A stretch of 63,986 bases of DNA, filler included, from Hausera hauseri (lineage: Eukaryota), in NCBI GenBank assembly GCA_046269625.1. It is 11 parts of 11 records of this genome, joined end to end, with 100 filler letters (N's around TTAATTAATTAA, not from the genome) between each part and the next. Parts side by side here need not be neighbours in the genome. Positions count along the whole stretch, not along the records: positions 36,809 to 43,786 come from JBJURY010046998.1; 10 more parts are not named here. One strand, 5' to 3'. Below are positions 16,341 through 56,281 of the stretch, piece after piece. A program made the position numbers and the translations under genes. The first letter of the stretch is position 1. Every line of letters starts with the position of its first letter. A model generated the notes under the pieces. The model ran no database searches and was not told the origin of the DNA. It saw nothing but the letters and a program-made list of their open reading frames with translations.

Positions 16341-16652
16341 TAATTAACGACATACCGGCGACCAAGGCCCCACATCAAGTAATCGAGTATAGTTTGAAAG
16401 TCTTAAAATTTGGGCTATAAGTTCAAAAAGGTTTTAAAATAAAAATCTTTAGAGAACAAATATTGATAGATTAAGAGTAGAGAGAGAGAGAACAAAAATT
16501 TAGATAAACGTTCACTTTCCGAAACAAAAGTAAACTCAGTTAATACATATTTAACCGCCGTTGAACGATTCGATAAGTTAGAAATTCCTCTTGTGAAAAC
16601 TAAAGTTAAAAGAAACAATAAAGTAAATTTAGAGACTAATTACGCAAATAAT

Positions 16653-17716
16653 ATGGCAGCAGATAACCCACCAGTAGTGCAGAAGCTAGACATCTTCACT
16701 TTTGATTCTCTGAATCTGCCGGCATACGATGGAAATCCGGAGAGATTAAATGAATTTTTGAGAACTTATAAATTGCACCAGTCTTACTCCTAAAGCAAAG
16801 ATTAGATGTTTGTTTTTATATCTGAAGAATTTAGGCGCTGATGCTTACAGCGAGCTCACTACTGATGAGAAAAAATTTTGGTCCTCCCTGGTAGGAGCAT
16901 TAAACCGATAATTATTGCCAACAGTAACACCGCAACAGAAACTTATGGCATTTCAGAACAGGGTGCAACAGAAGGGTGAATCGGTAACCCAGTTTGCATT
17001 TTCATCGAAGAAACTCGCTAATAGTTATGTAAGAACATTGAGAATAGCCAATTTCGCCAGAGCCAAAACAGACGCGGAACGTGTGCCGCCAAAAAAGGCA
17101 ACCACTTCAGATTTGGATGTCATGATGACGACGCAATTATTTAATGGTATTTGGTCCCGAGATTTAGTGAAACAGTTGATTTTAGCCAGACCTGAGAATT
17201 TTGAAAGGACTTTGCAATTGGTCCAAGACTTAAAAATGGCACTTGATAGATATGCCAGACACAATGATAGGAATGATAGAAATAATGATCGAAATGATCG
17301 TAGCAATAGAAATTGGATTGATAATCGTGGGAGAGAGTAGACGATTTAACGATAATAGAAATAATAATATTGACTATAGGAATGGTCGAAACAGTACTTA
17401 CGCGAGTGATCGAAATACGAATAAGTTTAATTCCAATTCGGATAGAAATCGACTTAGCTATAAAAGTTCTAACTTTCAAAATCATCATGATGATAATCGA
17501 AATAATAATAATCGACGAAATGTAGATGGTGCACAAAGTTCGTCGAATCAATACTATAGAAGGCCAAATAGCGCTAAGTCACCTGAAAACGAAAACGGTC
17601 GTCAGAGAGTTGGCAGAAATGGGAATTTAGTTTGCATTACTTGCGGTAAGGAAGGACATATTGCAAGGTCATGTCCGAAACCGCGTAGCGTCTCCTTCAC
17701 CGAGCCTAATAAGTAG
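16653..17716 (+). pseudogene. gag: gag (capsid + N/R/D-rich linker + CCHC nucleocapsid), copy 1
   Basis: LPAYDGNP, MHR-like QQKGESVTQFA, zinc knuckle CITCGKEGHIARSC. Frameshifted. Confidence 0.9.
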
Positions 17717-17745
17717 AGTATGTTAAAGTCAACAAAAACTTAACA

Positions 17746-20700
17746 ATGAAATATGGCGTGTGTGGAGATACAGGTACTATTATTGACATACAGGATTTGC
17801 GAAAATTTCTAGATGCTCAGCCTGAGACTAATAATCCACAAATTCTTATGGCCAGGAAAGAATACGGCGATAAACTACGATTATTAGAGGTTTACCACGG
17901 TTTAGAAAAACCGGAAACTGAATATGAGTATGCCATAGTACCCAACCAAATTGATATAACGCGGAAAAAGAGTATTCCGACAATTAATAAAACGGTAGAG
18001 AAACCAGGAACTTCGACAGAAGTCGACTTAGATGCAGAACCTAAGTCTACGGTTGAAAAAGTAAATAAGATTACAGAAGATGATATAGCAGAAAAAGAAT
18101 TTATGGAACAATTAATACTTAGAATTACAAAAAACAGAGGCCGTAGCCCCTAACTTAAGCAAAAACGTAGAAGTCGTTCGCGATCGCAAGTAACTAAAGA
18201 AAAACCAGAAGAAGCAAAGGATACAAACATCGCTGTAAAAACCGACGTAGAGTCTAGTTTAAAAACAGCAGAAATAGGTCTATTTACACCCATCGAGGTA
18301 AAAGAATGTGCAAAGTCGATTAACAAAATCAACGAGATTTGCCTACTTCCCACTAGCAAGGCAGAAACAAGAAATATTGATAACTTTGATCCAAGAAAGT
18401 GGAAAGTCCGACGTTCATGGAAAAACGCCGATGAATTAAAGAAAATGAGAATTAGATGCCACAATCCAGAAACATTACAGCAAAATTTAGAAAGGCTTAA
18501 GCAGATTAGCGAACAAGTAGATATATCTGATAATGAGCAACAATTTGCTGAGAGGTTATATAAAAGTTTAAAATTATGTAGTGAAGGAAAACTCGAGGAA
18601 GCAATCGACTTAAAACAACCTGAAGTGGTGCCACCTGAAACGTCAATAAAATGGAAGCGTGAATTAGAATCGTGGATTAAAAATGGAGTCGAATTTTCGG
18701 AAGGGTGGAGCAAAAAAGAAGATAGTGTTGATGTAAAAGTCGCTAAAGCCCAGACGCTACTGTCTACCTTGGAGGAAAATCCAAATCTGAAGAGAATAGT
18801 CCGTAATTTAGAGCATATGATGGATGAAATTCATGTGCAATGATTAATCGGCTTAGAGAAAAACCGGTTAACCACCGAAGTGACGTTGATTTAGAGATAT
18901 TGGGTATAGACCCAGTAGACATTCCTCCTTTAATAGAGATAATAAAAATTGCCTTCGCCGTACCTAGATAATATATGAATTTAGAAATTCGTATTAAAAT
19001 GGAGAATGCAAAGAGATCACAAATTAGTATTTTGAGAAATCGAGTTATGCTTATGAATAACGAAGAAACCAAATATGTAATAAAGGCTTGTATAATAGAA
19101 TTCTACGAATATAAGGATGAGTTCAATTATGTCAGTCGGATTATGATTTTCATAGAAGATCCAGATGATGAATTAAAGGATGCTTATAAAATGTTATACA
19201 AGGCGATATTAGCAAAACCTATAATGGTTAACCAATTGAACGAATGGTCCGAATTAATATCGAGACTAAGCAAATTAGTGGGAAACCGTATCAAGGAATT
19301 TTCAGAAAGCGAACCTACGATAAAGAGACAATTAGAAGAAAGTGCACGTAACTTAGATACGATACAAGCGGAGATATATATCCGGACTCAATTCGACGCA
19401 TTACGGCTGTGATGTTTGACAAATAAATTCCAGCTTTAAACACGAAGGATATATTCAGAAATAAAATCCACGGATGATGAAAAACGATCTAATAAATAGG
19501 AAATCGAAATTGAATACCAATATATTTTGAACAAACGTCTAACAAATTAATCTGCTTAAAATCGAAAGGAAACCAAAGTTGTAACCAATATTTATTTAAT
19601 GTCTGTTATTGACAATAAACTAAAAGAATCAATTCTTAAAATATCTGCATATTAAAACAATCTCAATTTTTTGCACATATATAACATCATGTTACAATCT
19701 AGACAGTATAGTCACCAAATAGATAGTTCAGTAAATAAGGTCCATTTGAAAATCAAAAAAATAACCATAAAATTATATAAAAGTTTGTATACATACAAGC
19801 ATCTGAACAACAATATCGACACAAGAATGATACAGACTGAATAGCCGTCCCATACAAAATATTGTAAAAAATAAAAAAATAGGTTTCGAGTCAGTCGTCT
19901 ATTTTAATTTCTGTGTAAAAGACTGTAGCAAACGGAGGTGGGTTTTGAATCAATTAATCAAATGAGAGAATTCTAACGAAAAGAGTTGCTTCAGTTCACG
20001 CGATTCCACATCGTACGACTGCTGAATTTCGTTCAGAATATTTTCTTGTTTTGACAATTCTTTCGAATTCTTGTTGATATCCGATTCGATAATAATAATC
20101 AGACTGGTCCACCAGTCATCGTCGCCCACACAGTACTTATTTTTCATTCGAATAATTTTCATTAAACTTCCGGCATCTCTAATGATTGGATCCCTGGTCG
20201 ATTTTTGTGTTTGTAGATTTTGGATACATGTGGTACGAATAATTTGGTCAGTCAATGCAAATCCTCGTTCAAATGAATGAAAGAAAAGAGATGTTATTCT
20301 GATACTGACGGAATGGGTCATGATTGATGGATGAGGAGCGCGATAAATTAGTACTACTACCGGCTAGTGTGTGGAGAATACTAGACTCGCTTGTCGATGG
20401 TAATGATATCAATTTGTGTTTGACTTCCTGTTGTTTCTTTGGTAGACTTATTTTCAGGAGTATGTTGACGATCGTACAGCAGATCCATGGACGGATAATG
20501 GGTGGCATGTAAGACTGCAATATATCTTGTTGATAAGGGGGCTGATCGTTTTCATGACACTAAGTGATGTTGAACTGGTGATAAGTAAGGCAATGAGATT
20601 CGTCAATCCGTCTGTTGACACAGTAGGTTTGTATGCCGATAAATTCGTTACTGGCAAATCTCGAGGCAGAAGATCGGGGCCCGCCTAGGAACCCGACGTG

Positions 20701-22905
20701 GCGGCAACGGATGCCCGGCCGTGTCCAACCAAATGGGCCAGAGGGCGCCGGCCGCTGTGGGCACCACAACGGCAAATGAACTTTATAAAAAAGAAACAAG
20801 AAATGATGATATTGGAAGAAATATATAAAATTATCGAAGAGACAAACTTTACAGAAAAGCGGAATATGAGTTGCAATTTTTACCCAAGATTAAGAAACAT
20901 CCGACTAGAAGGAGTCCAACATTTAACAGCTAAATCTATTGACGAAATCTTAATTCAAAATTTCGAAACTTTGGATATTTGTTCAGAACATAGAGCCGCT
21001 GTAGAGGAAGCAATAAGATTCCTACATAAACCACAAAATATATGGCCGGAACAGATCAAAATTGCCATACCGGCTTAACAAAAATAAGGAATGACCACCA
21101 CCTCAGTTTTGAAGAAAGTAAGTTCGTGAAGAAACTGCTTGATGCGATAGACCCCGACTCAGAAATTCTTAATGAGATGTATGAGTTAACCCTACTATTA
21201 GTAGAAATGGCAGAAATTAGCTATGAGAAGATAAGACAATTGATGCCTCAAATACGACAGGCTGAAGAAACGTGCATTAGAACCAAACAAAGAGCAATAA
21301 GGTTAGACGAATTAGCAAAATAGCTCGAAATTTATCGGAACAAGTATGCTTTTACTGAGTCAGAAATTAACAGAAAGATAGAGTTTGTATAAAGATAACA
21401 AAGCGATGTAACTATATAGCTAAACGACTATAATCAAATACAACCGAGATTATAGGAAATTCGAGAGAACGTACAAAGATTGAATACAGCGCTAGTAGAC
21501 TATGGACTTCCAGAAGTTGGAAACGAAGCAGAATGGGATGCTTACTTAGATGCGATAAATGCCAAAAATCCGATAACTCCAGTACGTTTAAATGAACCAG
21601 AAATGTGTCCGCAGATTAGGAGATTTAATGTGGAGATGCTCCTGGACTCAGCTCTAACTGAAAAAGCTTTAGTCGAACTAACTAACGTAAATATTACTGA
21701 AAATAAGCTAAGGCAACTTATTCCGACCCTAACCAAATTATCTTGTGAGAATACAATATATAGCGCGGTCCCAAAACTACTGATAAGGAAATACGCTAAA
21801 ATCTTAAAAGCTAAGCCTGAGGTAACGATGAAAATAAAGATGGGCGAAAAAGAATGTGAGTTAACCACATATTCATATGTGAGGGATATAAGATAATGGT
21901 TAATGAACAATGGTGGAACAAATGAGTTAATTATAGATTTTATTTTAGAGGTAGAATATTAGACGACTTAGAACAGTTAATAGACATTGAAGTATCCCCG
22001 ACGAAACAAACCGAACAGTGGTAACAGTAGCTAATGAGCACACTAAATAAGAAGCCACACGTAAGGCTGAGACAAAACAATGTGTAGGACAAATCATGGG
22101 AGTCCGAGATGCCGCCATGTATTTTGAGTATCTGCAAACGGACAAAGACAAGAAACAGTACGACAAGAATTTAGTACCACTGAGTGAAATGACAACAACG
22201 GTTTCGAAACAGAAACACCCTGTAGGTAGGCCCAGGAATACGAGAAGATGTTGACTACAAAGGAGAATTGATTAGAGAATTGAGACAGATGTCAATTCCT
22301 ATCTTCAGTGCAGACAACGAAGAGTTAAGCGAGTTAATGAAAAATCTAATACGCATCGTAAATTATTCAAACTTCCATGGTGACGTATTGGACGAGAAAG
22401 AGAAAGCGATATTTAACGCACCTAAATGATGAGAAATTTTTGCTTTAATTTATCAAAGAGTAACCTAACCGATGAATCAGTGGTCGAGAGGATTATGGTG
22501 GAGAATACGATAGAAGAGCTAAGAAAAGTATTACTGTACTTAGCTATCAAAACAAATCCCTCTCAGGAGAATAAATTTAATATAGCTACAAGCTTAGCAA
22601 GGAAAGCGATTAGAAAACTGCCTCCAGAAATAAACTGGTTAAGATTATTCGATAAGGAAGAAGGTAAACGATCCAGCAATAGTAATCGACTCGAAGACAT
22701 GTTACGAAATCTCACAACAACGTAAAATAATAACCGTAGAAATGAATCAAACTGGTTAATCAACTTACTCACCTTGATGATGCTGGTGAAACAAATAGGT
22801 GTCATTACCGTCTATGATTGCGATAAATTTCAACTTGGACAGAAATACTCCTTAATGGATTTAGAGGTGTGCGAAGACGCCAGATCGCATAAACTAGAAA
22901 CAAAG
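17746..22905 (+). pseudogene. Region X (unknown helical protein, RS patch, ubiquitin-like domain ~21820-22030, AT-hook ~22213-22239) and the Env signal/N-terminus, copy 1
   Basis: Colinear homology with 36809-40385. Interrupted by the solo LTR at 19408-20768, stops and frameshifts. Confidence 0.8.
19408..20768. mobile_element. Solo LTR (1361 bp) of a different LTR retrotransposon
   Basis: Termini TGTGATG...CACCACA with a perfect 5-bp TSD ACGGC (19403-19407, 20769-20773). Absent from the homologous site in copy 2 (~38135). Confidence 0.88.
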
Positions 22906-24955
22906 GAGAAAGGGAACAGAAAGGGAACAAGACGATCACTTAGGCTCTTTGCTGAAGATGGAAGAAACGTACGGATTATTGCAGTAAACTACGGGGAAAA
23001 GGACAATGGCGGATATATTCCCATATAGGTTTCCGTTCGGGAAATAAATGGCGTAGAAGTTTACTCTAAGGTAATTAGTCCCCGGAAACCAGTCAGAGAA
23101 ACCTATGCAGAGGTTACCGGAATCAAAAAGAACACCTAGTTCGAGGCAAAGACATTAACTTGCTCAGAATGGAACTCATCATGACCTATATAGATGCATT
23201 CTCGCCGGATATAAGATTGAAGAAATTGTGGGAAAACTGGAAATACCACGTACCTACATAGCAGGAGCCAGAGAAATGAAAATCCATCCTACAGTTACGC
23301 AACAATTGGGAAGACTTATCGAAGAAAAAAATAGCTGTTTGCCCATGACCGTAGAAGGTCCATTTAAGTTTATGTTGGAAGCTATGAACAGCAAGCATAT
23401 AAAGATAAGCCGTCTTATGACCGCTAGTCAAAGAACGCAATACTTACGGTATATATCTCACCCTGAAGTGAGATCATGAGTGGACCCAAGAAAATCCAAA
23501 ACAGAAACTGCTCAGTCCCACCGACCCAGAAGGATTGAATAAACTTCACAGAAAGCACTTCCGGCCATATTCGCTCCACAGGATGGTCGAATCGTCGAAC
23601 CAAGGAAACTATAATATAACCATAAAGTGGTCTGGTGCAATAAAGAACACTCCAAGGCATGGATTGGAGTTGGACAGAGACGTCCTACCGAATAATACAA
23701 ATTCTTCAATGGGATTTAAGGTACCCGTAACTCCTGAGAAATCACTAAGAGGAATTAAAACGAAGAACAACTCCAAGAGGCAGCGAATCGAAAAATCCTC
23801 CCACAAAATAATCAACTTCAGTTTACGAATACCTATTCAAAATGAAGGATAAACGAGAGAAGACCGGAGAAGGAATGAAGAATTCCAGTAGAACTAAATT
23901 GAAGGCTACTGAAACAACCCAGAAAACAAAACCAAAACGCCCAGAAGAAAACAAAAGCTTCAATAAGATCGAACAAAAACAGATGGAACCCGGTACATCC
24001 TAAAGAGAAAGACCTAGGAAAAATTTACAAAACAAAATACCAGAAAAGGGAAGATCCCAGCCTAACTAACATATCACTAAAGTGAATTTACCGCATAAAG
24101 GGAAGTCCAATGAAGATGTCCGCTATGCTTTCTCAGACGACTGTACAAAATTACTAATCATGGCAGAATATTGCAGTCATCACAGAATCGAAGAGGCCGC
24201 ATTTTACGTAAAGGCCATAAAAGCCAGAGAGACCTTAGAAGACGCATATATGGGAGAATCCGAGAATCGGACGTTATTTAGCCCCCATATTCAATTCCAG
24301 GAGGATCAGGTAGTTATCCTTGCCGGTAGACGCCTACGTTAAAATAATGCTTAAGAAACAACACCAAAAGTATCAGTCAGAGTGTAAAATTCCCGATTTG
24401 GATAGAGAAATTGTCATAGATTGGACCTTAGTGCCCATGAATTACGACCACAGAAAGAGCTCAGTAGATTGGAAACAGAAGATAATCCATGCATATTTAT
24501 ATCAAGATTAAGACGGACTTGTCTTCGAGCCTATAGAAATCTTTCGGAAGGTAGACATAGATAGAAAAGGGGTTGAAGAAGAAGAAGACGTATGTACAGT
24601 CTGTGGAGATAACATCAAACAAGGATTTGTGAAATGGGACAATAAAGAATGTAGACACAAATACTGTTGTGGATGTTTAGAAGCATGGACATTGGAGAAT
24701 GGGAAAACAAATTGTCCAGTATGTAGAGCCGAAGCCGCCGGACTTAGGTATTATTCGGACTGCAACCACCATCGGACGGTTCAGATCCACCCTGCAACTG
24801 GATATAATATCGAAGATATACCTTCAGATAATACCGAAAACGGAAGAGATCTTCGGCAGAGAATGGAGCTTCTCAGATCGCCACGCATAGGCGTCACCTT
24901 TCTTGACGCAATGGGCACATTCGAGCATGCCGCTCAGGAAGAAGAAATGTTGTAA
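22906..24955 (+). pseudogene. 3' coding region ending in a C3HC4 RING finger (24593-24727), copy 1
   Basis: CTVC...CRHKYCCGC...W...CPVCR. Homologous to 43887-44606. Confidence 0.82.
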
Positions 24956-25410
24956 AAACAAGCCTAGTGAAACAGCTGAAGCTGTTGAGATGCAAATAAT
25001 CATATTGAAATAATTAAATATACATAAACGAACGATCGAAATAGTTAAATGTACCTAAAACGAATGGTAATGGTTTAGTAGCATATGTTAATGAAATAGA
25101 AATTGTAAATAATTTGTAGATATGGCAAAATAATTATGGTAAAGGCAAATAAAATAATAATAAATAAAATTAACCAGATGGACTGGGAAGAAGCGAAAGT
25201 ATAAATATAGAGAAGAAGTCAAAACAGAGACGAGACAAGAATCAGGAAAACTGCTTATCAAAATTTGGAAAGGAAACTGTTTATTTAATTCGTTGAATGA
25301 AATTGTTGATTGAATCGCCGTATCTTCTGAACATGACCCTGTGGTAAATTTGTTGTTTAATAAAGGTTTTTCTTTTGTTAAATTGTTAAATTTCTATATA
25401 GTTTTCCACC
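24948..25410 (+). repeat. 3' LTR (partial), copy 1
   Basis: PPT caggaagaagaaa then TGTTGTA; TATA-like 25200; aataaaggttt...atagttttcca is homologous to 45005-45053. Confidence 0.75.
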
Positions 25411-25825: not shown

Positions 25826-26639
25826 TGTGACAGATTTTCTGGATTTGAATTTGTATTATATATGCCTAATATATGTCTAATATATGATATTGATGCATTA
25901 AAAGAAAACATACGTAACGAAATATATAGGAGGGTAATTCCGGCAATATATATATATATATATCATTTTTGAATATTCTAGAACATTTTGTTTTAATGCA
26001 TTTGTAAATTTGACAGCACAATTTTGAAATAATGAAAGATAGCCATATAAACACGTGCTGTCTACGTTTATGTATATAATTGATGCATTAAAATAAAACA
26101 CATTTTTAATAGTGGGTTAATAGGTTTTTATATGTGGGGAATCAAATGAAGTCATTAGATTCTTCGAATAATTTACGCTTGATCAAGTATTCGTGTTCAA
26201 ATAGCTATTTATTCGACTTGTAATCTCGAATTTAAATACCTGATGCCATATTCCGATTTAGCATATATGCTTGCCTATCCAATCCCGCTATTCGATTTAT
26301 CGAATTCTGCTTCATTACTCTTCAAATGTACATTTTGCTTAATTCGAAATATTGATTTTATACCTATATAGTACAGTGTCATATTATAATTTATGCATGT
26401 GGGGATTTTCGAATACGAGTAATCGATTTTCGCCGTTAGATTTTTCGAATAGTTCGAACTTCGATTTTTGAACTCGAAAAAATTCGAATTTCGAATTTTC
26501 GACTTGAGATTCGAGTTCGTTATAGCCGATTTCCTATCTGCCCCCACTCAATGTTGGATGGAATTTCGCTTCCTATGACCTAAAAACCTTTGGAAAATTT
26601 GGCCAATTTGCATTTTGGAACGATATTAATCTATAACTA

Positions 26640-27412
26640 ATCAATAAATTTAAATTCTAACTGCACATATTATTGACATATTATTGACTTTTGCACACTT
26701 GCACACACGTTTTTGCACTGCACACCACATATCAAGGTGCATCTTGATGTGCTCTATCCACCTGCACTTGACCCCGATCAATTCCGTAAATCCTGCGCAG
26801 CACAACTGCAAAAGTGTGCAAAGTGAAAAAGTGCCATGGAAACCGTATCCACGTATACACCACACTGGAATTTTGCACTGAATGATCTACATCAAATGCT
26901 GCACCTGTCTGTATATGTGCCATATTGATATTATTGACTTAAAATTTATAGCGGAAAGGCCTATGTACCTTCACCCTTAGTTGACGTTTTATTAAAACCA
27001 ATCAATATATTCAAATTCTAACTGCACATTCACATTACCAGTCATGTGTGCTACCGATTGCACCGATCCCGAGTGATAATCATCAATATTAGAAATATCG
27101 GAAATCCATTATTATTGATTTTTGCACACTTGCACATGTGCTGCACACTTGCACTTGCACCAATCAATGCACCTCGATGTGCTTTATCGATTAGCCCTTT
27201 GTCGCGATCGATTCGATCAATACTGCACTGTGCAATTATCGATTTGTCAAAGTGCAAAAGTGCCCTTAGCAACGGTTCCTAGGGGCACCGTTGCCTAGCA
27301 CACTACCGATCGATAGTGCTCCGTGGGCAATATCGATTGGCACATGTACACAATCGATTTGTCGATTACCTTCACCCCCGGGGTGAGAGAGAAGGTACAT
27401 TTTCCTCCTACT
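26640..27412. repeat. Polinton/Maverick terminal repeat (TGCAC/ATCGAT-rich, internally duplicated)
   Basis: ~26810-27412 is homologous to ~60715-61298. Both stop abruptly at ...CCTACT(GCT), resembling the Polinton AGTAGT/ACTACT terminus. Confidence 0.7.
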
Positions 27413-30012: not shown

Positions 30013-32130
30013 TGTCCATAAAAAACATTTGATTTTTTTTGCCAAATCAAAAAAACAAATATTCAGTACCAATATGCCAATAACGACTTTAAAGGAAAAT
30101 TGAGGGTGCAGTTTATGTGTATTGCACATGTGTAATACACAACCCCGAGAATTGCCACAATACCATGTGGAGCTATTATGGTCACAAATTCAATAGGATC
30201 ATTTATTATATCTGCCCAGAATGTGAGGCTGTATGTGATGGCGAATACATACAGTTTTATAAAGATTACAAACATCATCTGACTGACTTCGCAAAGTCAA
30301 AGAAGATCACATTTAATAAACATAAGCCTGCAGTACAGCATGCAATACCACGGACTGCAGTACAGCCAGATGCAGGACTAAAACGCGCATCAGACACATC
30401 AGGCGTAGTGGCTCCAACAAAAAGCCAAAGACAGCGGCCAGTAGATGCTGTAGCATTAAAGAGGAAATGCCGCAAATATGTCATTGAGGCAACTGGTCAA
30501 ACAACCGTCAAGGAGTTCCTGGAGTACACAAAGAAAGAAAAAGAGGGGATTCTTCAGGACAATATGAAAGAACTCAAAGCCCTTAAAGTCAGTATAAAAC
30601 TGGAAGCCACATACGTCAATACTGATGGCGAAGAATCCAATAAGGCCTTCAAAACCAAAAATAGACCCATATTGGAAAACACCAATATAGCAGAATAGAT
30701 GCAAGGGGTGCACGAGAAGCCGATCCACTAGGCTGAGGAGAACCATGATAAGAAGAGCGGATGGACTCTGTCAATTATCAAGAGATTGCTTGTGTATGTG
30801 CACAAGTACTCTCCCATGGGTGGCAGTTCCTCTATACAGCTTCAGGAACGGATAGTAAGGAAAAAGGCATGCCATTTTATGTAAACTCGTATGGGATCAA
30901 AATCATGCAGCAGATCGAGTTTGGCTATATTAGGATCTGAAGCACAACTATGGCTTTTAATGTATTAAGTTCTCACCAGCCATAGATAAAGTAAAGTAGT
31001 TCGGTTGAATCAACAATATATCAATCAACATCATTGGGTTGGATGATGAAGGCAAATTCTATCCCCTGCTGATGTGCGACGTTGAATTAGAAAACCATAG
31101 GGATCTGCTTCTACTATATTATGGTGAAAAGAAACATTATGTTTGGATCAGTAACTTTGAACTTCTAGTCTGATTCCAAATTACGAAACATCATGGACAA
31201 ATAGAAATATGTAAACCATGTTTTTCATATTTAAGTGGTGATACAGAAGTGGATATGCTTGAAAAGCACAAAACATACTGCAACAACAATCACTGTATCA
31301 GGCCAAAATTTCCCAAGGATGACTATATTGAATTCACGGAGTTTAAGAAGAAGATCAGTGTCCCATTTTTTACCTGTTTGTGATTTTAAGGCTATTCTGA
31401 GTTTAGTTCAGAAATGTAATCCCAGTCCTCAACATTGCAGCACAAAGGCATACCAATATCATGAACTCTCATCGTATTGCATGTATGCCAAAGGACTGGA
31501 CAGTAAACCATTTCTATTCTGAGGTCCAGGTGCAACAGCACATTTCATAAAGCGACTTGAAGACATGGCTCATATGCTTGAAAACGTGTTTCAGCAGCAT
31601 AAGAATACAATAAGCATGTCCTGGAAACAAGAATAATGGCGCAAGGCAACAACATGTTACTTGTGTGACAAGCCCTTCACCAAGGATAATCATAAAGTCG
31701 GCGATAATTGCTTTTTTACAGGTGCATATAGGGGCGCAGCATGCAACAACTGCAATCTTTGCTGCAATACATGCACATATGTGCCATAATCTCAGTGACT
31801 ATGATTCCCATTTCATTGTCCGAGAATTAGGCAACATTGAAGGAAATATTGAGGTGATCCCCAACAGTGAGGAAAAGTATGTCACTTTCACTAAGCATGT
31901 TGATAAAATCCGACTTCGCTTCATAGACAGCTTTCGTTTTATGTCGTCTTCACTGGATGGTTTAGTGATGAATCTCTCTGCAGAAAAATTCAAGGAGTAG
32001 ATGCGATTCTTTTGCACTACATTTGACCTAAACAAGAGGAAAGGCGTGTTTCCCTATGACTATATAACTTCATGGGAAACACTGGATGAGACCTCATTGC
32101 CGGCCAAGAAGGACTTTTACAATATCCTCT
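30013..32130 (+). pseudogene. polB: Protein-primed DNA polymerase B, copy B (N-terminal half)
   Basis: N-terminal Cys/His module, AFKTKN, KSGWTL, VCDFKA, HNLSDYDSHF, FIDSFRFM, RKGVFPYDY. Truncated by the contig end. Confidence 0.9.
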
Positions 32131-36808: not shown

Positions 36809-39800
36809 TTACTGAGGATGATGCAGCAGAAAAAAATTTATAGAGCCATTAATACTTAAAATTACGAAAAACAGAGGCCGTAGCCCTTCATTAAAAACGA
36901 AACGTAAAAGCCGTTCACACTCCAAAGTAACCAGAGAGAAAATTGAAGAAACGAAAAACCCGAACGTCGTTGTAGGAGGTGACACGGACCATAGTTTGAA
37001 TACACCAGAAGTTGTTTCATACACCTGTTGGAGTAACGGAGTCTATAGAGGCACTTAATGAAATTAACGAGGTCTGCCCACTTCCCATTAATGAGGAAGA
37101 GACGGCAAACAATTATGATTTCGATTCAAAGAAGTGGAAAATCCGACGTTCATGTAAAAACGCCGATGAAGTAAAGAAAATGCAAATTAATTGTTTGGAG
37201 CTCGAAATATTACAGAGAAATTTAGAGAAGCTCAAGCAGATTAGCGAACAAGTCGATATAACCAAAAAAGAACAACAATTCGCCGAGATGTTATATAAAA
37301 GTTTGAAACTGCGTAGCGAAGGAAAGTTTGCGGAACCAATCGACTTTGAACAACCCGAAGAGGTATCAACCGAAACGTCGTTATAATGGAAGCAGGAATT
37401 AAAATCATGGATTAAAAGCGGTGTAGAGTTTTCAGAAGGATGGAGTAAAAATAAAGATATAGTCGACGTAAAGGTCACTAAGGCTCAGACGCTATTGTCT
37501 ACTTTAGAGAAAAACCCGAAATCGAAGAGAATGGTTCGAAACTTAGAACGTATAATGGACAAAATTCGGTACGCAATGATTAAACGGCTTAGGGCAAAAC
37601 CGGTTAACCATCGCAGTAAAGTCGATTTAGAAATATTGGGTATAGACCCGTTAGATATTCCTCCCTTGACGGAGGTGATAAAGATCGCATTTGCTAGACC
37701 CAAACAATACATAAACCTGGAAAACCGACTTATGATAGAAAACGAAAAGCGAGCACAGATTTATAGCTTGAGGAACCGAATCATGTCCCCAAATCATGAG
37801 GAGACCCAATATATAGTAAAGGCTTGTATCGTAGAATTGGACGAGTACAAGGACGAGTTCAGTTATGTCGGCCGAATTATGAATTTCCTAAGAGGACCAG
37901 ACGATGAGTTAGAAGATGCATATAAAATTCTAGATAAGGCTATAATGGCGAAACCGATAATCGCAAATCAACTGTCGGAATGGTCCGAATTAATAATGCG
38001 ATTAACCAAATTAGTAGAAGATCGGGAGAAGGAATTTCCGCAAAGCAAGCCAGTGGTAAAGAAGCAACTAGAAGAAAGTGCACATGATTTAGGCACAATG
38101 CGAATAGAAATAGACATCCGTACTCAATTCGAAGCGCTACGACGACTAAAATTTATTGAAAAGGAACGAGAAGCGTTGACGATGGGAGAAATCTACAAAC
38201 TGATCGAAGAGACGAATTTTACGGAAAAACGGAATATGATTTACGATGTAAACTCAAGGTTAAGGGTTGTTTGACTCGAAGGAGTACAATACTTAACAGG
38301 AAAACCAATCGACGAAATTTCTGTACAAGACATTGAAATCTTGGACATTTGTCCAGGGCATCGAGATACGTTAACGGACGCAATAAAGTTTTTGCACAAA
38401 CCACAAGAATGGATGGCCGCATCAGACCAGAATTTCCATACCAAGTTGACAAAAATAGTAGACGATCCACGTTTTAGTTTTCAAGAACACAAATTCGTAA
38501 AGAAACTGTCGGATGCAATGGACCCTGATTTAAAGGTTATAAATGAGATGTATGAGTTAGTCTATTTATTGGTGGAAATGGCAGAAATCAGTGATGAGCA
38601 AATGAGGAAATTGATGCGCAAGATACAGAAAATAGAAGAAACATGTATCAAGACGAAACAAAGAGCGACAAAGTTAGATGAAATAACAAAGGAGCTTGAA
38701 GTCTATCGAAACAAATATGCTTTCACCGAATCCGAGGTTAAGAATAAACGAGAATTTGTACAAAGATGGCAAAATTATGTGATTCTTGAATTGACAGATT
38801 ATCACTAGAAGGGGCTGATCAACCCGAACGAATTGGGCGAATTACTGAAAATGATTCAGTATTCCTGTGGAATCGGAGTAGGTTTCCTGACTACGCAGAT
38901 AAAAGAAATACAACCAATATTGGAAGAAATTAGGAAAAATGTACAGAGATCAAAAACAATTGGGATAGACGCTGGACTTCCCGAGGTCAGTAACAAGCCG
39001 GAATGGGATGCATACTTCGACGCAATGCTGACCGAAAAGCCTATGACTCCAGTACAATTGAATGAGATACAATCATGTCCGCAAGTCAGGAGATTCAATG
39101 TGGAAATGCTTTTGGATTCAGCGCTAACTGAAAAAGATTTAATCAAACTAATTAACGTAAACATTACCGACAGTAAATTAAGACAACTAATTCCGACATT
39201 AACTAAATTATCTACCGAAAACATGATTTATAGTACGGTGCCGAAACTTTTAATAAGGAAGTACGCAAAAATCTTGAGGGCTAAACCTGAGGTGACGATA
39301 AAAGTAATGGTATCATCCGAATGGATGGACGAAAAAGAATGCGAGTTGACTACATATTCCTACGTAAAGGACGTAAGAGAATGGCTAATAAACAATGGTG
39401 GAACAAACGAGTTAAACTACAGATTTTATTTTAGAGGTAGAATACTCGACGACCTAGAACAACTAATAGACGTCGGTATTATTCCTGACGAAACAAATCG
39501 GATAGTGGTAGTGATAGCTAACAAACAGACAAAGGAAGAAGCTACACGTAAAGCCAAAACAGAAGAATGTGTAGGACAAATCATGGGAGTTCGAGACGCT
39601 GCACTGTATTTTGAGTATTTACAAACGGACGAGGATAAGGAACAATACGACATAAATTTAGTACCACTGAGTGAAACAACCACTAAGGGTCCAAGGCCGA
39701 AACGCCCAGTAGGTAGGCCTAGAAAAGTGCGAGAAGTGGATTACAACGGAGAATTAATTAGAGAATTGAGACAGATGTCGATTCCGACTCTTAGTCCAGA

Positions 39801-40233
39801 TAACGAGGAATTAAGCGAGTTAATGAAAAATTTAATACGAATTGTAAATTATTCTAGTTTTCGAGGAGATGTGTTAGATGATAAAGAAAAGATAATTTTC
39901 GATGCAGCCAAAATGATGAGAAGTTCACGTTTCAAACTATAAAAAATTAATTTAACCGACGAGTCAGTAATAGAAAAGAGAATGGCAGAAATCACGAATG
40001 AAGAATTAAGAAAAGTTTTACTATACTTAGCTATTAAAATAAATCCTAACCGAGAGAATGAAATCAATAGGGCTATAAGCTTAGCACGGAAAGCGGCAAG
40101 AAGAATGCCTTGCGAAGTAAATTGGGCAAAACTATTTGACAAGGAAGAAGACAAAAGAAACATCAATAGACTCGACGATATGTTACGTAACCTGATAACG
40201 TCAGACGTTGGAGGTCGGAAAAATGAATCGAAT
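36809..40233 (+). pseudogene. Region X, copy 2 (ubiquitin-like domain ~39289-39516; AT-hook KRPVGRPRK 39700-39726)
   Basis: ORFs 37012, 37495, 38341, 38833 and 39982 all share one frame and are separated only by point stops. UBL pattern VTIKV...YVKDVREWL...NYRFYFRGRILDD...LIDVGI. Confidence 0.8.
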
Positions 40234-42020
40234 TGGCTAATTAGATTGCTTACCTTAATGATACTAACAAAGCATATAAGCGCGGTAACCGTTTATGATT
40301 TCGATAAGTTTAAATTAGGACAGAGATATTCCTTATGGACCTGGAAGTATGCGAGGACGCCAGACCGCACAAATTGGAAACAAGAGAGAAAAGTTACTTC
40401 CTGTATCAACATCAAGAATTGATATCGTTAGACGGAATGGAGTGCATGCTGAGACGATCGCGTAGTATCTTCCACTGTGGACTGGTACACGGACATTCCT
40501 CCATAATCAAGCCAACTACTCCGCTAATTCCAATGAATTTAGAACGCCAACACTGCAAGCAAGCTAAAGAGACTGGAAGAGTACAGTGGGATAGTATGCA
40601 ATTAGAAATGCAACCAGGTAGTGGCCGGAAGACTAGATATGCATAGCGTATATTGTCACGGAGAGGAATACGACACCGGAAAAGGATTACAATCGAATGT
40701 GGTAGTCGTAGACTTTTATGAATCAGAGATGCGGTCACAGAAAGTAATGTTCCATAATGTCACCAAGTTATACACGGAGAATCAAAAATGCCACTTACAA
40801 GATGGAACCTGTGCTTTTAGAAGTTTGGTTATAATATGGGAACCTCCCTCTGGAAGAAGCTGTAACTTTATCAAAATTAAGGAGTTAAAGTTTAATGAAA
40901 CTACCGGAAAACGATATGTAGACCAATCGGAGGCTAATTCAAGAACACGCGAAGATGTATCGGAACACCCTACACCTACTATATTAATCTCGGACCCGCA
41001 TGGACTAAAATTTATAAAAAAGGAGATGATGACTCGTTGCGATGTAATAATGTTCGCCACAAACTATGAGGCGTTTTTTTGTAGCCGAAATGGAAACAAA
41101 CTCAAAAACCTACAAATTGGAAACGCAGGATGTTCGGATTGAGGATTACCTGAAAAATAGAGACGATTAATTCTACTATAAAGGACAAGTCGGAATAACG
41201 GAATTATATCATAAAATGATAATGAATGACTGCAAATTGGATACAGAAATCATGAGAACTAAAATGTCTCTTATATATGCAAACCCGGAATTGGCTTTTC
41301 CAATAATTCCCATGAGAGAAGGAATTTTCGGTCGAGTTACGGGCGAAGTGTTACTAACCTATGAATGTGAAAAGTGAAAAGTTCCCATCAGTGTAGAAGA
41401 AAAGCGTTGTATCCAGGAACGTCCTGTTATTTATCAGAATACTCCAAGATTAGCTACACCATTGACAAGAGTGATGTTGGATAACGCGACACAACCAACT
41501 ATACTCAAGGATTGTAAAACAAGCTTAGGAGAGCCAATATTTAGACGCAGTGAAACCGACTGGGTTAGTTTACCTAATGGAGATATTACTGCCGCCCCTA
41601 ACAAGCTAACAGGGACGAATCTCGCGAACGAAATTACAAACGATAAATTTCAAGACACCTCATCGAAAGGTATATATAGGCCGAAGGAAATTGAGGCTTT
41701 CAGACAATTCCTTTCCTTTCCACGACAACGTACGCATGACCTAAATCGAGCTATGGCGTCTGTAGTAGACGACACACGATATCAGGCTAAATGGGAATCA
41801 GTACTTGGCGTAAACCACTATCAGAGAGTAACAACAGAAATACTCTACAAAATTTAGGGGAGATTTTTGATCTTCGGACAGGCCGCATCTGGATTTTTAG
41901 CGATATATTTCTTGATACAAATGATTAAGGCAGTCATCCAAGCCGTAATAAACGGATAGGGAATATTTATACTAACCGGATTTTCACGTAAAATTCTGAC
42001 TGCAATCATAACGCCCTTTG
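40234..42020 (+). pseudogene. env: Env: chuvirus (Jingchuvirales)-type glycoprotein with internal signal peptide and C-terminal hydrophobic segments
   Basis: WLIRLLTLMILTKHISA|VTVYD(C/F); IFHCGLVHGHS; YCHG..NVVV; CHLQDGTC..IIWEP..C; LYHKMIMNDC; GEVLLTYEC; C..ERPVIY; GIYRPKEI..SFP; TM FLIFGQAASGFLAIYFLIQMI..G*GIFILTGFS. This motif order matches chuvirus G proteins. Confidence 0.85.
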
Positions 42021-42694
42021 GAAAATTTTTAAAAGCATACGAAGAGAGTAGATGGAAATCGGACGTAGAACGCCATGTCGGTTACTATAATCGTAAACGT
42101 AAAGGGAGATCAATATTCCTTCGCAAGCGGAAGTCTACAAAATCTATTAGAAGAAGGAATAAGTCAGATGATGACGAGCCAAAGGGAGGAGAAGCGCTTT
42201 CAGGAATAAATCGACATAATATGTACTCGGTCGTTAAAGCGCCATTGCCCGTGTTACCTCCTACCGCCCCATTCTACTACGATTGCGATAAACAGTTCAT
42301 GAGCTCATATCAGACAGAAATTTATAAAATGACAATTAATGTAGAAGACCCTTATGAAGGAACGAAACGATACAAAATTTTACGGAAAATGTGTTACCCC
42401 CAATCCGCGGATGATCCTAAGATGATATACTTACCAAGAAAACCTAAGAATATTGAAACTAGATCGACAGTTTGGGACAACCCAAGATTAAAAACCTTCC
42501 AACATACTGAACTACATACTAACAATCGGGAACCGCTATTTAGTACTCATGAAATAAAAGAATTGCACGTAGAAAATAACGAATTATATCTAAACGGAAA
42601 ATTAAGACAGTTATCGGAAAACATAATATCCGCCCCAGAAATACGAATAAACGGACACAAAATATCAGTAACTAAACGTACGAAAATAGCATAA

Positions 42695-43120
42695 AATTGT
42701 TTCGGAACAGTGATCGAAGGAAGGCCGTTCGCCAAAATCACTATTGAGGATTGGGAAGTTTATGCGTTAATTGATACGGGTTCTGAAATGTCTTACATCA
42801 AAAATGATTCAATACCTCAAACGCTAAGAGGACAGTTTTATCCGCCGTCTACAAAAGATTCAGGCAATACGGGAGCTTTTGGCCAGATGTCAAAACCAAT
42901 GTTTAAATGGAATCCAGAAGTCCAATTAGTTGGACAAATATTTCGGCATGAATTTGCAATCATGGAACAATTAACTGGTGATGTCGTTCTAGGATGCGAT
43001 TTATTGAAAAGGCTACTAAATATAGCAATCGACTTACAAACAGGAAAGCTGATTGAGATTAGACCCCAAAAGGGCGTGAAGAACGCTAAGGATAGAAAAT
43101 TTTGGGAAATGTGAATACCA
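42695..43120 (+). pseudogene. Retropepsin-like aspartic protease
   Basis: YALIDTGSEMSYI ... VVLGCDLL. Confidence 0.92.
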
Positions 43121-43620
43121 GTAGACGAGAACATCCCACCAAAAACGGAGATAATAATTTACTCACAGATTCAGCAAGATGGCGATTAACCAGTATATTT
43201 TGAGCCAAGGGGAACATTACATCCTTATATAACACTCAGTAATGTGCTAACGAGAGTACACTCCGGTCGTGTACCGATCAGAATAGCTAATAACGCGCAG
43301 ATTCCCTTCAAGCTCCATGCTTATACTACTTTAGGAGACACGTATAAAGTATCATCGATAACTATCGAAGAGAAACCTTATAAATATACCAAGTTTCCGC
43401 CTCACGTTGAAACCAAGTTTTCACATTAGTCATATTGTCGATTTTACGAATTATTGTGCCGCTACAAATAGATTATTGCTAAAGATGAAGAGGACATCGG
43501 TAGGGCGAAAGCATTAAAGCTGACTATTCCGCTCAAGAAAAAGCCTGGTTCAAATGAAGAAATAGATCTGGAGGATCAGAAGATGCCAAAATAATACACT
43601 CCACCGCATTCGCTAAGACC
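43121..43620 (+). pseudogene. Post-protease beta-rich linker and start of a Gypsy reverse transcriptase region
   Basis: IPPKTE..VYFEP..VPIRIANN, then ELLCRYK*IIAKDEEDIGRAKALKLTIPL (Gypsy pre-RT pattern). Same frame as the protease. The contig ends before the RT core. Confidence 0.6.
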
Positions 43621-43786
43621 CGAGAATAAATTACTGTTCTGTTTATGCCGGTTTGCAACGCCCATGTTGTAAGTTACCAGTAAACCAATAATTCAAAATA
43701 AAGTTCGACTTATATGAAGTAAAACCAAATAAATTGAGCAAACATTTGCGGACTTACTATCCGAAGAATAGAATATGGAAGATTTC

Positions 43787-43886: not shown

Positions 43887-44606
43887 TATGTGTGGGAGAA
43901 CGTTGGACTCGGAACCTATCTCACTTCACTATTTTGTTCAAAAAGGACAGGGAAAATAGTGGTTCCCGTGAACAAGCAAATCCAAGTATTATTATAGAAA
44001 CAATATCAAAGGTATAAGATAGAAGGAAATATTCTTGATTTGGACAAAGATGTCATGACAGACTGGACCTTAATCCAAGTGGATTGCGATCCACGAAAGA
44101 GCTCAATTAACCCCAAACAAAAAGTGATTCATGGCTACTTATATCAGGATAAAGATGGTCTTGTATTCGAGCCGATTGAATTAATCATCCAAGTGGATCT
44201 GGATAGGGACGATTGGAACAAGGAAGATAGCGAATGCCCCGTATGTGAGACAAATTTGAAACAAGGGTATGCGGTTCTGGACAACAAAAACTGTCGTCAT
44301 AAATAGTGTTGAGATTGTCTGGAGAAGTGGACACACGACAATGGGAAAACAACCTGTCCAGTATGCAGGGCAGAAGCCACCGAGTTGAAATACTATTCCA
44401 ACGGGAGCTATACCCGTATCGTCCGGATTAAACCTTATCACAGTTACAGCCAGGAGACGAATCCCCTAATACGTCGAGAACATCAGAACTCACCATCGGA
44501 TTTAGATGAAAGGATGAATCGGCTAAGACGACCTGAAACGTTTGGCTCCACCTCTTCTGACGCAATAGGCCCTTCCGAGGATGCCGCTCAGGGAGGAGAA
44601 ATGTAG
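43887..44606 (+). pseudogene. 3' coding region with a C3HC4 RING finger (44234-44369), copy 3
   Basis: CPVC...CRHK*C*DC...W...CPVCR. The ORF ends AAQGGEM*, overlapping the PPT and LTR start. Confidence 0.82.
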
Positions 44607-45310
44607 CGTATTGAGCAACAGTTGTTGAAGTAATTGTAGCAGTTGTTAAAAGTAATAAAAAATTTAGTGTTGCCGAAAATAATAAAAATTGGTTGAAGCA
44701 ATAAAATGAATGAGCTAAAACTATTGCAATATACAAAGATTGCAAATATTTAGAAAATCCAATATGTCTAACATATTGTATTTATGTATCGAGAAAAGCA
44801 GAGATAATAGAATTATATTATTTTTATTACCGAAACCAAGCCTATATAAACGATATCAGAAATGAAAAAGTCAGAACAAAATTTGCGACTTAGGATCGCA
44901 GTGAACCGAATCGAATTGAACTCTCCTTATTCCAAAAGACTTACGAATTCTATTCTATATTGACAATACCTGTTCTTTGAAGCTATTTGATATCCGTGTG
45001 ATTAAATAAAAAGGTGATTTAGATATTTGTTGTTAAACTCACATAGTTTTCCATCGTCCTTTAAGGACGATTTGCACTACACTAAGGGTAAAATCTTACT
45101 TAAATTCTAGAGCTAGGTTGAGAGAATCTAACTTAAGACACGCAGTTTTGTGCACACAGTACCTGCATTGACACCTAAACTAAATCTAAAAATCTTAATT
45201 CACAAGCAGACTAATCGAGACCGAATAGTCCTAACCTGCTGATACAGAAATAAAAACTCGGATTAATATTGTTGTAGTGGGAGAAGGTAAGGGCCACCCC
45301 AACTATAACA
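44602..45310 (+). repeat. Complete LTR (709 bp)
   Basis: PPT cagggaggagaaa (44589-44601); TGT start, ...TATAACA end; TATA tatataaa 44843-44850; aataaa 45005-45010; followed by the PBS. Confidence 0.85.
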
Positions 45311-45314
45311 TACT

Positions 45315-45331
45315 TGGCGACCCTAGCAGGA
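45315..45331 (+). promoter_or_regulatory. Primer binding site (probably tRNA-Arg type)
   Basis: TGGCGACCCTAGCAGGA lies 4 nt after the LTR end and is complementary to a tRNA 3' end ...TCCTG....GGTCGCCA. Confidence 0.75.
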
Positions 45332-45687
45332 CAGTTTGTGCCTCGCTAGACTTGACTCTTGAGAAACCAATTAACGACATACCGGCGAATAGCGCCATTT
45401 ACATCAAGTAATTGATTTAATAGGAATCGAAGTTTAAAATTTGGGATTATAAGTTGATAGAAGGGATTAACTGGATTGAATTGAGAGCAAACATTGATAG
45501 GCTCAAATTGAAACAAAACTTGTTAGTAAACGGTCAAAAGGAACTAAATCAAAGAGAGACAAGAAATAGACTTTATAATGAAGATAAGATAATAGATAAG
45601 CACTATCTGTCCGATACCGAATTAAACTCTGCTAGAGAATTTAAAGTGCCTCCTAGAACTAAGATAGATAAAACGAATAAAATTAAA

Positions 45688-46720
45688 ATGGCACCAGATA
45701 ATCCAGCGATAGCTCAGAAACTTGATATATTCACGTTCGACTCGTTAAACTTACCCGCATACGACGGAAACCCAGATGGGTCAAATGATTTCCTAAGAAC
45801 TTACAAATTGCATGCAGAAGGTGCCGGTCTAGCAACCGAAGTCATGATAAAACGATTATCATTATATCTGAAAAACGTGGCTGCAGATGCCTATAGTGAA
45901 TTGACTAATGAGAAGAAATTATGGTCCTCTGTAGTAGGAGCTCTGAATCGTAAATTATTGTCAACGGTCACGCCACAACAGAAGCTAATGGCCTTCCAGA
46001 ACAAAATACAACAAAAGGGTGAATCGGTTACGCAATTTGCATTAGCACTAAAAAAGCTTGCTAATAGTTACGTGAGTACGCTAAGGATAGCTAATGCGGC
46101 AAAGGCAAAGACAAACGAAGAACGTGAAGCGGCAGAAAAGGCGAGCCCGCCAGATTTAGATGTCATGATGACTACACAGTTAATAAACGGTATATGGTCT
46201 AGAGATTTAGTTAAACAATTAATTTTGGCTCGACCAGGCAACTTCGAGACTGCATTACAGTTAGCGCAAAACTTAGAAATGGCATTAGACAGATATGCCA
46301 AACAGAATGAAAGGTATGACCGAAATAATGATCGTGACAATCGAGACAGAAAAAAGAAACAATAGAAGATTCAACGATAGTAATAAGGATCGAGGTTATG
46401 AGAATAGAGCTTAAAACACCTTCAATCGCAACACGAGATATGATAATAGGAACTTTATTGATAACCGAAATACGTACCAAACAGGTTATAATCCGAATAG
46501 AAATCAAAATAATGACCGAAGTAACAAGAATCGTTATATAGAAAATCGAAGTTTTAAAAATAGAAAAAATGGAAATGATAAGCAGGCTCAGCTGACTCAA
46601 AGCAAAACGATGGGTCGACCCAAAGCACAGTAAATGAAGACGGAAGACAAAGGATCGGTCGAGACGGAAACCTGATTTGTTATTCATGTGGTAAAGAAGG
46701 TCACATAGCTAGATCATGCC
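45688..46720 (+). pseudogene. gag: gag, copy 3
   Basis: MAPDNPAIAQKLDIFTFDSLNLPAYDGNP, QQKGESVTQFA, CYSCGKEGHIARSC. Confidence 0.9.
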
Positions 46721-48744
46721 CTAATCCACGGAGCGTATCATTTGCGGAGACTAATAAAGCTAGCATGATAAAAGATAATTTGGAATGAATCTATGGGAAA
46801 TGATGTGACATGGGCATGATTATCGAAATGCAAGACTTACGAAGATATGTAAGAAATATGGGCGAATCTAATAATCCACAAGTAATCAAGGCTAGGAAGG
46901 AGTATGAAGAAAATTTGCATCAAATGGAAGTTTATCATGGATTAAGAGAACCAAAACAGAATACGAAAAGGCTATAGCGCCCAAAAATACTAATATGGCC
47001 AGAAAAAAAAACCTAAATCCAGTGGCAAAGCCAACTACGCCTCCAAGCGTAGATTTGGATGTAGGTACTGAGGTTGCGCCTAAAGATAAGGACAAAGTAA
47101 CAGATGAGGTTGAAAGCGAATTCATTGGCCCACTGATACTTAAGATAACGAAAAGTAGAGGTAGAAGCCCCTCTCTTAGGAGAAGGTCGAGAACTCGTTC
47201 ACGATCACCTATCAAAAAGGACATAGAAAAAGAGGAAGATTTCACTATCACTCTAAGAGATGAAACAGAGTTAGACACTCCGAAAATAACGAACATTCTG
47301 AACATTGATTAAATAAATGAAATATGTCCGTTATTATCTACTGAGGAGGAGTCAAAAGAGGAAGAGTCTATTAAATTTGCAAAGATCAGAAAATATTGGA
47401 AAAATGCGAATGAGCTAACAGAAATAAGAGACACTTCGAACGATCTCGGAAGACTGACTGAGAGCTTACAAAAACTGCAGCAAATGAGCAAGCAGTTGGA
47501 CATTTCAGGAAAAGAACAACAATCCATAGAAAAGTTGTATAAGAAGTTTAAAACCGGCCTCCAGAAAGGAGAAGAAAGCATACCATTCGAACTGCAAGAA
47601 GTACCGCAAGATTGATAAAATATTGGCAAAAGAAACTGGAATTGTGGACAAGGAGTGAGATCGAATTTACAAAAATATGGTGGAATAAAAACGAACCGTT
47701 TCTGGATCAGGTTAATCAAGCGCAAGGACTGTTAGACACACTTAAGAACAAACCAAAACTAAAACGCGTAAGGCGTAATTTAGAAGGATTGATGCATGAG
47801 ATAGAAGAAGCGATAATTTCTTATCTCCATAATAAGCCAGTATACGAACTGACTAATACTGACCTAGAGATACTGAGTATAGACCAAACCGATATTTTCT
47901 TCCTATTGGAAATGTGCAGCTTCATAAGGCATAAACCTCAGAAATATTCAGATTTAAAAATACGTATCGGAAGAGAAAACGAAATACGAGACAAAATTAA
48001 CGACTTAAGGATCGGCGTAGTCTACTCTGAAAACATAGAAGTAAAAAGAATAATACGCGCTTATCTGCTTGAATTAGATGAATATAAGGAAGAATTAAAC
48101 TATATGGAACAAATCGTAAAATTTGTACGAGGACCCGATCATGAACTAAAAGAAGCTTTTGAGGCTTTAGACAAAACTATATACGCTAAGCCAGAAACAT
48201 CTAGACAATTGGAGAAGTGGATAGACTTGCTACCTTCTATAGTTGAAGTGATTAACGAACGGCTAAGGGAGTTCAATGCGGTTGAACCAATAATGAAACA
48301 TCAATTGGAGGAGATGCTACTATATATCGGCACAATGGAAGATGAAGCGAAATTGCGAATCAAATTCGAATCATTTCGAGAACTTGAATTTATGAACCAG
48401 GAGCAAGATCTGACATCACTAACGGAAATGTATACTATGATAGAAGAAGAAGACTTCTGAAGAAAAAGAAATAAACTAAGTAATCTCCAGCGGAGCTTAG
48501 TAACCATCCGTTAAAGGAAATCTCTGTACGGGAGATAGAAACATTAGAAGTGTGTAATGACCACCGGATTGCTCTCGCGCAGATACTGCAGTATATACAG
48601 AATTCAGTTGAATGGTCACCGGGCTTTGACCTACATTGCCACTCCGAATTAACAGAAATTAAAAATGATCCGCAACTGACAAGCGATGAAGCCAAGTTTG
48701 TAAGTAGGCTGATGCACGCAATAGATCCTGACGCCGAAGTGTTA
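46721..48744 (+). pseudogene. Region X N-terminal part, copy 3 (divergent subfamily)
   Basis: In frame with the CCHC knuckle. Homologous to 17746+ and 36809+ (LILKITKSRGRSP, VRRNLEGLM, AIDPDAEVL). Confidence 0.8.
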
Positions 48745-51197: not shown

Positions 51198-51233
<36 letters not shown>

Positions 51234-54200: not shown

Positions 54201-54507
54201 AAAGATAAAACGAACGAACGAATGAACGAACGAACACACGAAAGAAAGAAAGAAAGAATAAAAGAACGAACGAATGAACGGAAGAAAGTATGAACGAACG
54301 ATCGAACGAACGGAAGAACGTATGAACGAACGAACGAACGAAAGAACGAACGAACGAACGAACAGACGATCGAACGAACGAAGGACCGAACAAAGAAATA
54401 ACGAAAGAATGAACAAACGAAACAATGAAAGAACGAACGATCGAACGAACGGAAGAACGTATGAACGAACGAACGAACGAAAGAACGAACGAACGAACGA
54501 ACAGACG
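48845..54507 (+). repeat. Degenerate (GAAC/GAAA/GAAT)n tetranucleotide satellite, 5.7 kb
   Basis: The whole contig is built of GAAN units with a strong purine/pyrimidine strand skew. Confidence 0.97.
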
Positions 54508-54811: not shown

Positions 54812-54818
54812 TTGTATG

Positions 54819-56242: not shown

Positions 56243-56281
56243 GATCTCGATGATGATGATGGTGATGACGCAGTTTGTTTA

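Follow-up and report, generated by a model that had tools for sequence, protein, structure and literature searches.

Decayed copies of a multi-copy retroelement of the gag-env-pol kind, likely Ty3/gypsy, in DNA of Hausera hauseri

A 64-kb window of Hausera hauseri DNA (63,986 nucleotides, filler included; GenBank assembly GCA_046269625.1) contains three copies of one long terminal repeat (LTR) retroelement family, of which copy B (36809-43786) is the focal one. We conclude with considerable confidence that all three are decayed representatives of a multi-copy element, likely Ty3/gypsy, of the published gag-env-pol (Burro-like) kind, and that its env, encoding a glycoprotein of the herpes simplex virus glycoprotein B (gB) type, was likely inherited within the lineage. 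Domain order, homology, folds, purifying selection and high repetition were established for the element, which likely forms a new and distant family within a known kind and adds a distant, highly repeated member to the gag-env-pol elements.

Gene order, decay and repetition of the family

The window consists of 12 pieces joined in a row; between them are 11 runs of 100 N letters, 10 of which include a stop-codon spacer. Self-comparison of the window revealed copies A (16341-25410), B and C (43887-48744), which are 70-75% identical in overlapping stretches. Because N runs part the pieces, the three copies lie on separate contigs and the full gene order is a composite (Table 1). Copy B runs from a long spacer, here called region X, through a signal-like stretch, glycoprotein, transmembrane (TM) segment, tail and aspartic protease to a motif preceding reverse transcriptase (pre-RT), with homology to Pol stopping at about 43620. 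Copy A has gag, X, signal, approximately 40 Env residues, a 3' open reading frame (ORF), a RING finger, a polypurine tract (PPT) and the start of an LTR. It has no Pol and little of Env, passing from the Env start into the 3' ORF, and its X carries a 1.37-kb insertion (about 19406-20779) that matches nothing else in the window. Copy C presents RING, PPT, LTR, primer-binding site (PBS), gag and X, inside which the contig ends. Its single LTR follows a 3' end and precedes a 5' internal region, an arrangement reflecting either tandem copies or an assembly join. The PPT and TG of copy A (24936-24949) provide a second instance of the PPT-LTR edge. None of the three copies retains both of its ends. 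The original prediction had proposed the order PBS, gag, X, signal, Env, TM, protease, pre-RT, RING, PPT and LTR; all of these parts were found, but as a composite of three contigs, with Env adjoining protease in copy B only. Addition of the non-overlapping parts and a relative-sized Pol suggests an element of about 14-15 kb, in agreement with the predicted 14 kb or more.

Table 1. Positions of features in the three copies of the family
Copy	Feature	Position	Strand	Evidence
A	gag (CCHC 17633-17680), X, signal sequence, Env N-terminus	16646..22911	+	
A	3' ORF region with terminal RING (24593-24724), PPT (24936-24947), LTR start (24948)	22912..25410	+	
B	Region X, long Gag-Env spacer; stops 37384, 38272, 38806, 39940	36809..40236	+	
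B	Small helical domain ahead of ubiquitin-like domain, common to relatives	39061..39285	+	
B	Ubiquitin-like domain, without terminal Gly-Gly	39286..39528	+	
B	AT-hook-like motif	39703..39723	+	E 0.45, below cut-off
B	Predicted internal signal sequence, in frame with X	40228..40293	+	Hydrophobic stretch 40237-40293
B	HSV-gB-type/chuvirus-like Env (PF24664)	40291..42037	+	Pfam
B	Predicted transmembrane anchor of Env	41894..41950	+	Hydrophobic segment
B	Predicted cytoplasmic tail/linker, in frame with Env C-half and protease; stop 42692	42041..42691	+	
B	Retroviral-type aspartic protease (DTGS)	42719..43015	+	RVP E 9.7e-6 (Pfam)
B	Region after protease with pre-RT motif, homologous to Pol of relatives	43115..43624	+	
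C	3' ORF end, C3HC4 RING finger at 44232-44369	43887..44589	+	zf-RING_2 E 5.1e-8
C	Polypurine tract	44590..44601	+	
C	LTR, 709 bp, TG...CA; only whole LTR in window	44602..45310	+	
C	Putative primer-binding-site-like sequence starting TGG	45315..45332	+	
C	gag (CCHC 46678-46719) and 5' part of X	45688..48744	+	

Stops and frame changes interrupt all three copies, none of which retains intact ORFs, and the copies within the window are dead. Env of copy B changes frame near 40335, 40620 and 41080 and has stops at 41168, 41375, 41855 and 41957. X shares a frame with the Env start, as does the Env C-half with protease. X was coding, and both X and the RING ORF evolved under purifying selection. 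Ratios of nonsynonymous to synonymous substitution (dN/dS) were 0.14, 0.09 and 0.07 over 458, 292 and 266 codons of X (copy B versus A), and the RING ORF (copy C versus A) gave 0.17 over 230 codons, dS being near saturation in these comparisons.

The family exists as many diverged copies. Alignment of two public sequencing runs recovered 22,650 and 1,543 contigs, counts that do not represent copy number and of which the first may come from the source of the window DNA. In each run 30 of 30 bins were covered, and most aligned contigs of both were less than 95% alike to the element. At stops 38806 and 41375 of copy B, all aligned depth in both runs reads otherwise; thus, these stops look private to that copy. 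The junction of Env and protease on a single contig of a fragmented assembly, together with the failure of any listed contig piece to span the full TM-to-protease stretch, would suit an isolated event in which a single copy received an endogenous viral glycoprotein, or a chimera produced by the assembly. We give this explanation almost no credence, as the passage from X through signal into Env recurs in a second copy, 74% identical, a second-run contig bridges 40037-40319 from X into the Env start, and distant relatives show the same order in single proteins.

The envelope glycoprotein and its relatives

Just two hydrophobic segments of copy B exceed threshold, starting at 40237 and 41894, and Pfam family PF24664 (Monjiviricetes_fusion) matches between them and beyond in two frames, at 40323-40595 (E 2e-8) and 41105-42037 (E 2.6e-36). 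The middle piece, 40606-41142, is without a PF24664 match yet can be aligned to Env of relatives. From this match and the hydrophobic segments we predict a gB-type Env with signal and TM anchor. An RVP match follows, and these results support the proposal of a gypsy-like LTR element in which a chuvirus-type (class III) Env lies after Gag and before protease. Homologue searches with the tail/linker gave none.

Features typical of Ty3/gypsy elements are present in the family: an LTR with TG...CA ends, PBS, PPT, an aspartic protease and a Gag with one CCHC knuckle (zf-CCHC E 4.2e-5). Gag matches that of relative P0009 (iE 1.9e-6), and the protease and pre-RT stretch matches relatives having gypsy-type RT_RNaseH and Integrase_H2C2 domains (E 7e-20). 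Assignment to BEL/Pao (Anakin-like) or to another non-gypsy LTR group might also be considered, as BEL/Pao elements carry chuvirus-like glycoproteins (PMC7642597) and the window offers no reverse transcriptase (RT) to decide the matter: with RT regions of four relatives as queries, the best hit in the window had E 0.57. We regard this assignment as highly improbable given the gypsy-type domains of the protease-matched relatives, the single CCHC knuckle, the position of Env 5' of protease and the separation of the window Env from the BEL/Pao-linked Env P0035.

A phmmer search of 1.84 billion representatives with the Env C-half and protease returned 381 matches at E 0.001 or better, the best 150 of which were considered; 21 matches were hand-chosen for Pfam domain annotation. 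PF24664 followed by aspartic protease occurs in one protein in 8 of the 10 best matches, the other two being P0006, which stops after Env, and P0009, which has a protease motif only. P0001, P0002, P0024, P0031, P0151 and P0154 run on into RT, RNase H and integrase. Ahead of Env, a CCHC knuckle is present in P0005 and a Retrotrans_gag match, below cut-off, in P0156. Nearly all relatives are unnamed ENA proteins. A word-index protein search with the Env C-half among longer proteins gave no match, and a metagenome scan produced 3 short matches (46-52 residues) that were set aside as chance, the one inspected being a dense ORF cluster.

Some relatives have additional peculiarities. P0002, a Gag-Env-Pol polyprotein deposited as a protein of a Flavobacteriaceae metagenome-assembled genome, is likely animal DNA in a bacterial bin, that is, contamination. 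P0106 has immunoglobulin domains fused ahead of a chuvirus-like glycoprotein. By eye, P0001, P0002, P0151 and P0154 have a second predicted signal-plus-TM membrane protein after integrase, and several of these four have 2-6 protease motifs; the 3' end of the window family has a RING ORF instead.

In the original prediction, a gypsy element had acquired its chuvirus glycoprotein independently, in a capture specific to its lineage. The PF24664 match is compatible with such an event, as are the named chuvirus glycoproteins among the matches (P0022, E 4.5e-18; P0036, E 4.2e-15) and published Pol trees in which GAG-ENV-POL elements are not monophyletic (PMC13524379). However, these named glycoproteins rank below Env-Pol polyproteins, which score up to E 1.8e-59 (protease adding part of the score), and in Env-only alignments nine top relatives are 26-34% identical to the window Env versus 22-23% for named chuviruses. 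We also built an Env tree with IQ-TREE. Matches to a 305-residue single-frame Env piece numbered 178, of which 42 were dropped as short or near-duplicate; rows were thinned to 73, then 35 were picked by hand. The window Env belongs to a 15-row clade (97/91) that also takes in P0006, P0011, P0017 and every one of the 11 rows labelled Env-protease. Named chuviruses, the one BEL/Pao-linked Env included and an Env located 3' of a gypsy integrase lie outside it. Approximately unbiased (AU) tests reject pairing of the window Env with chuvirus P0022 (p 3e-7) or BEL/Pao-linked P0035 (p 2e-5). Because the window Env groups with Env-Pol polyproteins, and not with named chuviruses or BEL/Pao Env, env was likely inherited. 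Independent capture is thus largely refuted, and we assign it very little probability. On the direction of ancient exchange between such elements and chuviruses the tree is silent.

Region X, the polyprotein and published elements

Most of X is without a detected homologue in a word-index protein search and further sequence searches. ESM Atlas gave no usable match to 37387-38271 and only unnamed matches, at 0.76, to 38809-39939, and folding 945 residues of X from a single sequence gave no usable model (pLDDT 33). A helical plus ubiquitin-like stretch was first spotted by eye in X and three relatives. When those relatives, without X, were used for a profile, it matched 39136-39516 (iE 3.4e-8) and copy A (iE 3.7e-6), with real X scoring 27.1 bits versus 11.8 for the best of 500 shuffles. 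P0002 is a fourth relative with the module, matched by a four-sequence profile (iE 1.4e-4), which brings the module to four of the eight relatives having more than 340 residues before Env, three of those four having built the profile. A six-row profile matches ISG15 (E 1.6e-4) plus weaker ubiquitin-like proteins; the sole return of another search with the module alignment was its own member P0017. The module model (pLDDT 79.6) gave 161 Foldseek matches at E 0.001 or better, to ubiquitin-like folds; for VIA, Z was 12.8 and root-mean-square deviation 1.4 with 74 residues aligned. Agreement of sequence profile and then of modeled fold confirms a predicted ubiquitin-like fold inside X.

Sharing of this module upstream of Env is a further argument against independent capture and suggests that Gag, X and Env descended together as one block. 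Elements with Envs only 24-34% identical would share by descent the ubiquitin-like spacer domain already known from Burro. Two other interpretations of the module were discarded. A TFIIS-N-like reading of the helical domain, made by eye, is without support, fold matches being confined to model residues 76-156; a role of the ubiquitin-like domain as cleavage signal was set aside because a terminal Gly-Gly is not conserved. In P0017, residues about 1200-1325, ahead of the Env signal, appear BCL2-like by eye, as in Burro, with no Pfam match.

Placement of signal and TM segments, along with relatives that are single proteins, suggests a polyprotein model. The active ancestor likely had one long frame encoding Gag, X, signal, Env, TM, tail, protease, RT, RNase H and integrase, the joining of Gag and X in a single frame being presumed. 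Entry of Env into the endoplasmic reticulum would be directed by the internal signal, which signal peptidase would cleave, and transfer would halt at the TM segment. Gag-X and Pol would therefore stay cytosolic, tethered to the membrane beside Env, until freed by the element's protease. Particles carrying a class III fusogen might then bud and could spread from cell to cell, and the ubiquitin-like domain of X and the 3' RING ORF may act on host ubiquitin pathways. An element of the same identity could instead use Env as a membrane tether or assembly scaffold in an intracellular life cycle with no cell entry. The one-frame layout, which ties Pol to a membrane protein, would fit this function, and the literature on gag-env-pol elements, as far as available, showed no infectivity data. 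We nevertheless consider it unlikely, as the whole PF24664 ectodomain is kept across distant relatives and intact gB-like domains and fusion loops are predicted for this Env type (PMC13524379).

Both the gag-env-pol order and ubiquitin-like cargo are already in print. The non-canonical nematode endogenous retroviruses of Sacco et al. 2022 reportedly have Env before Pol in a metavirus, with a glycoprotein of RNA-virus type; compared by description only, they resemble the window family in this order. The order had been thought novel, but it is already published with a chuvirus-like class III Env in Burro/GYPSM1, giant gypsy-like LTR retrotransposons of planarians (PMC6431247), and in the GAG-ENV-POL errantiviruses that Chary and Hayashi (PMC13524379) describe from flatworms, nematodes and bryozoans, and chuvirus-like glycoproteins beside gypsy Pol are also in the literature. 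In Burro, env lies in frame between gag and pol, matches mononegavirus glycoproteins and has a Ubi2/SUMO-like motif upstream (PMC6431247). Burro and the window family thus have in common a mononegavirus-type Env between Gag and protease, a long accessory spacer with a ubiquitin/SUMO-like motif between Gag and Env, ubiquitination-related cargo and many copies, some decaying. Burro also has MATH, BCL2, BIR and ankyrin motifs, none of which were detected in the available parts of the window family, whose 3' ORF ending in a C3HC4 RING is unlike Burro. The literature searches made turned up no published description of this 3' ORF or of most of X, although Repbase, Dfam, GyDB or the figure supplements of PMC13524379 may include the ORF. 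Elements of PMC13524379 resemble the window family in gene order, Env (signal, ectodomain and TM) and LTR/PBS, a likeness judged by description and by eye rather than by computed identity. By eye, the window Env N-half is nearer to six Schmidtea 'Platyhelminthes_C1a' rows (supplement 2) than to the nematode rows shown. These elements are intact, intact ORFs being the inclusion rule of that study, whereas window copies are decayed; the available text and supplements leave ubiquitin unmentioned, whereas the window family has a ubiquitin-like domain. Anakin BEL/Pao elements of mosquitoes (PMC7642597) similarly have a chuvirus-like glycoprotein in an LTR element, but on a Pao backbone; the window family shows neither that backbone nor an Env grouping with the one BEL/Pao-linked Env in the tree.

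Several observations weigh against a Burro-like Ty3/gypsy element with an inherited env and a single-frame ancestor. RT and integrase of the family are not in the window, so gypsy membership is deduced from protease/pre-RT homology and relatives. The frame relation of Gag and X is not alike in copies A and C, the only ones holding both, and stop 42692 parts tail from protease in the sole copy with both. The Env tree is midpoint rooted, has rows drawn from matches to the window query, a biased sampling, and employs no mixture model, and the window Env sits on a long branch (1.24). Burro exceeds 30 kb and has 2-3 CCHC knuckles, whereas the window family has an estimated 14-15 kb, one knuckle and a 709-bp LTR. 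Burro also has a dUTPase-like motif after protease and Gag, Env and Pol in one frame; in the window family the best dUTPase-superfamily match after protease had E 1.7, and 39700-40236, where a BCL2-like motif would precede Env, gave no Pfam or PDB match.

A broader proposal, which we advance tentatively and with more doubt than conviction, is that Burro-like gag-env-pol elements comprise one old enveloped virus-like lineage in which a helical-plus-ubiquitin-like module is conserved in the stretch from Gag to Env. The window family, adding a 3' RING ligase, might then be an invertebrate endogenous retrovirus with a ubiquitin-pathway kit for budding or disarming host defence, in a host group perhaps outside those reported.

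Other elements in the window

Additional sequences accompany the family. A decayed Maverick/Polinton-like piece at 54608-59560 (minus strand) contains an rve integrase (57551-58303), with an ATPase-like stretch upstream and capsid-like ORFs recognized by eye. More Maverick remnants likely occupy 25511-32130, within which lies a DNA_pol_B_2 fragment (31614-31997), and 59661-63986. An internal duplication pairs 27421-28861 with 30723-32115, and 26811-27413 matches 60713-61296 at 75%. A gypsy-type integrase (15029-16240), then a coiled-coil-rich ORF, is found at 12114-16240 (minus strand). Both integrases are on other contigs and were not linked to the focal family. Lastly, 48982-54502 is a 5.5-kb degenerate ACGA tetranucleotide satellite, which accounts for long spurious minus-strand ORFs there.

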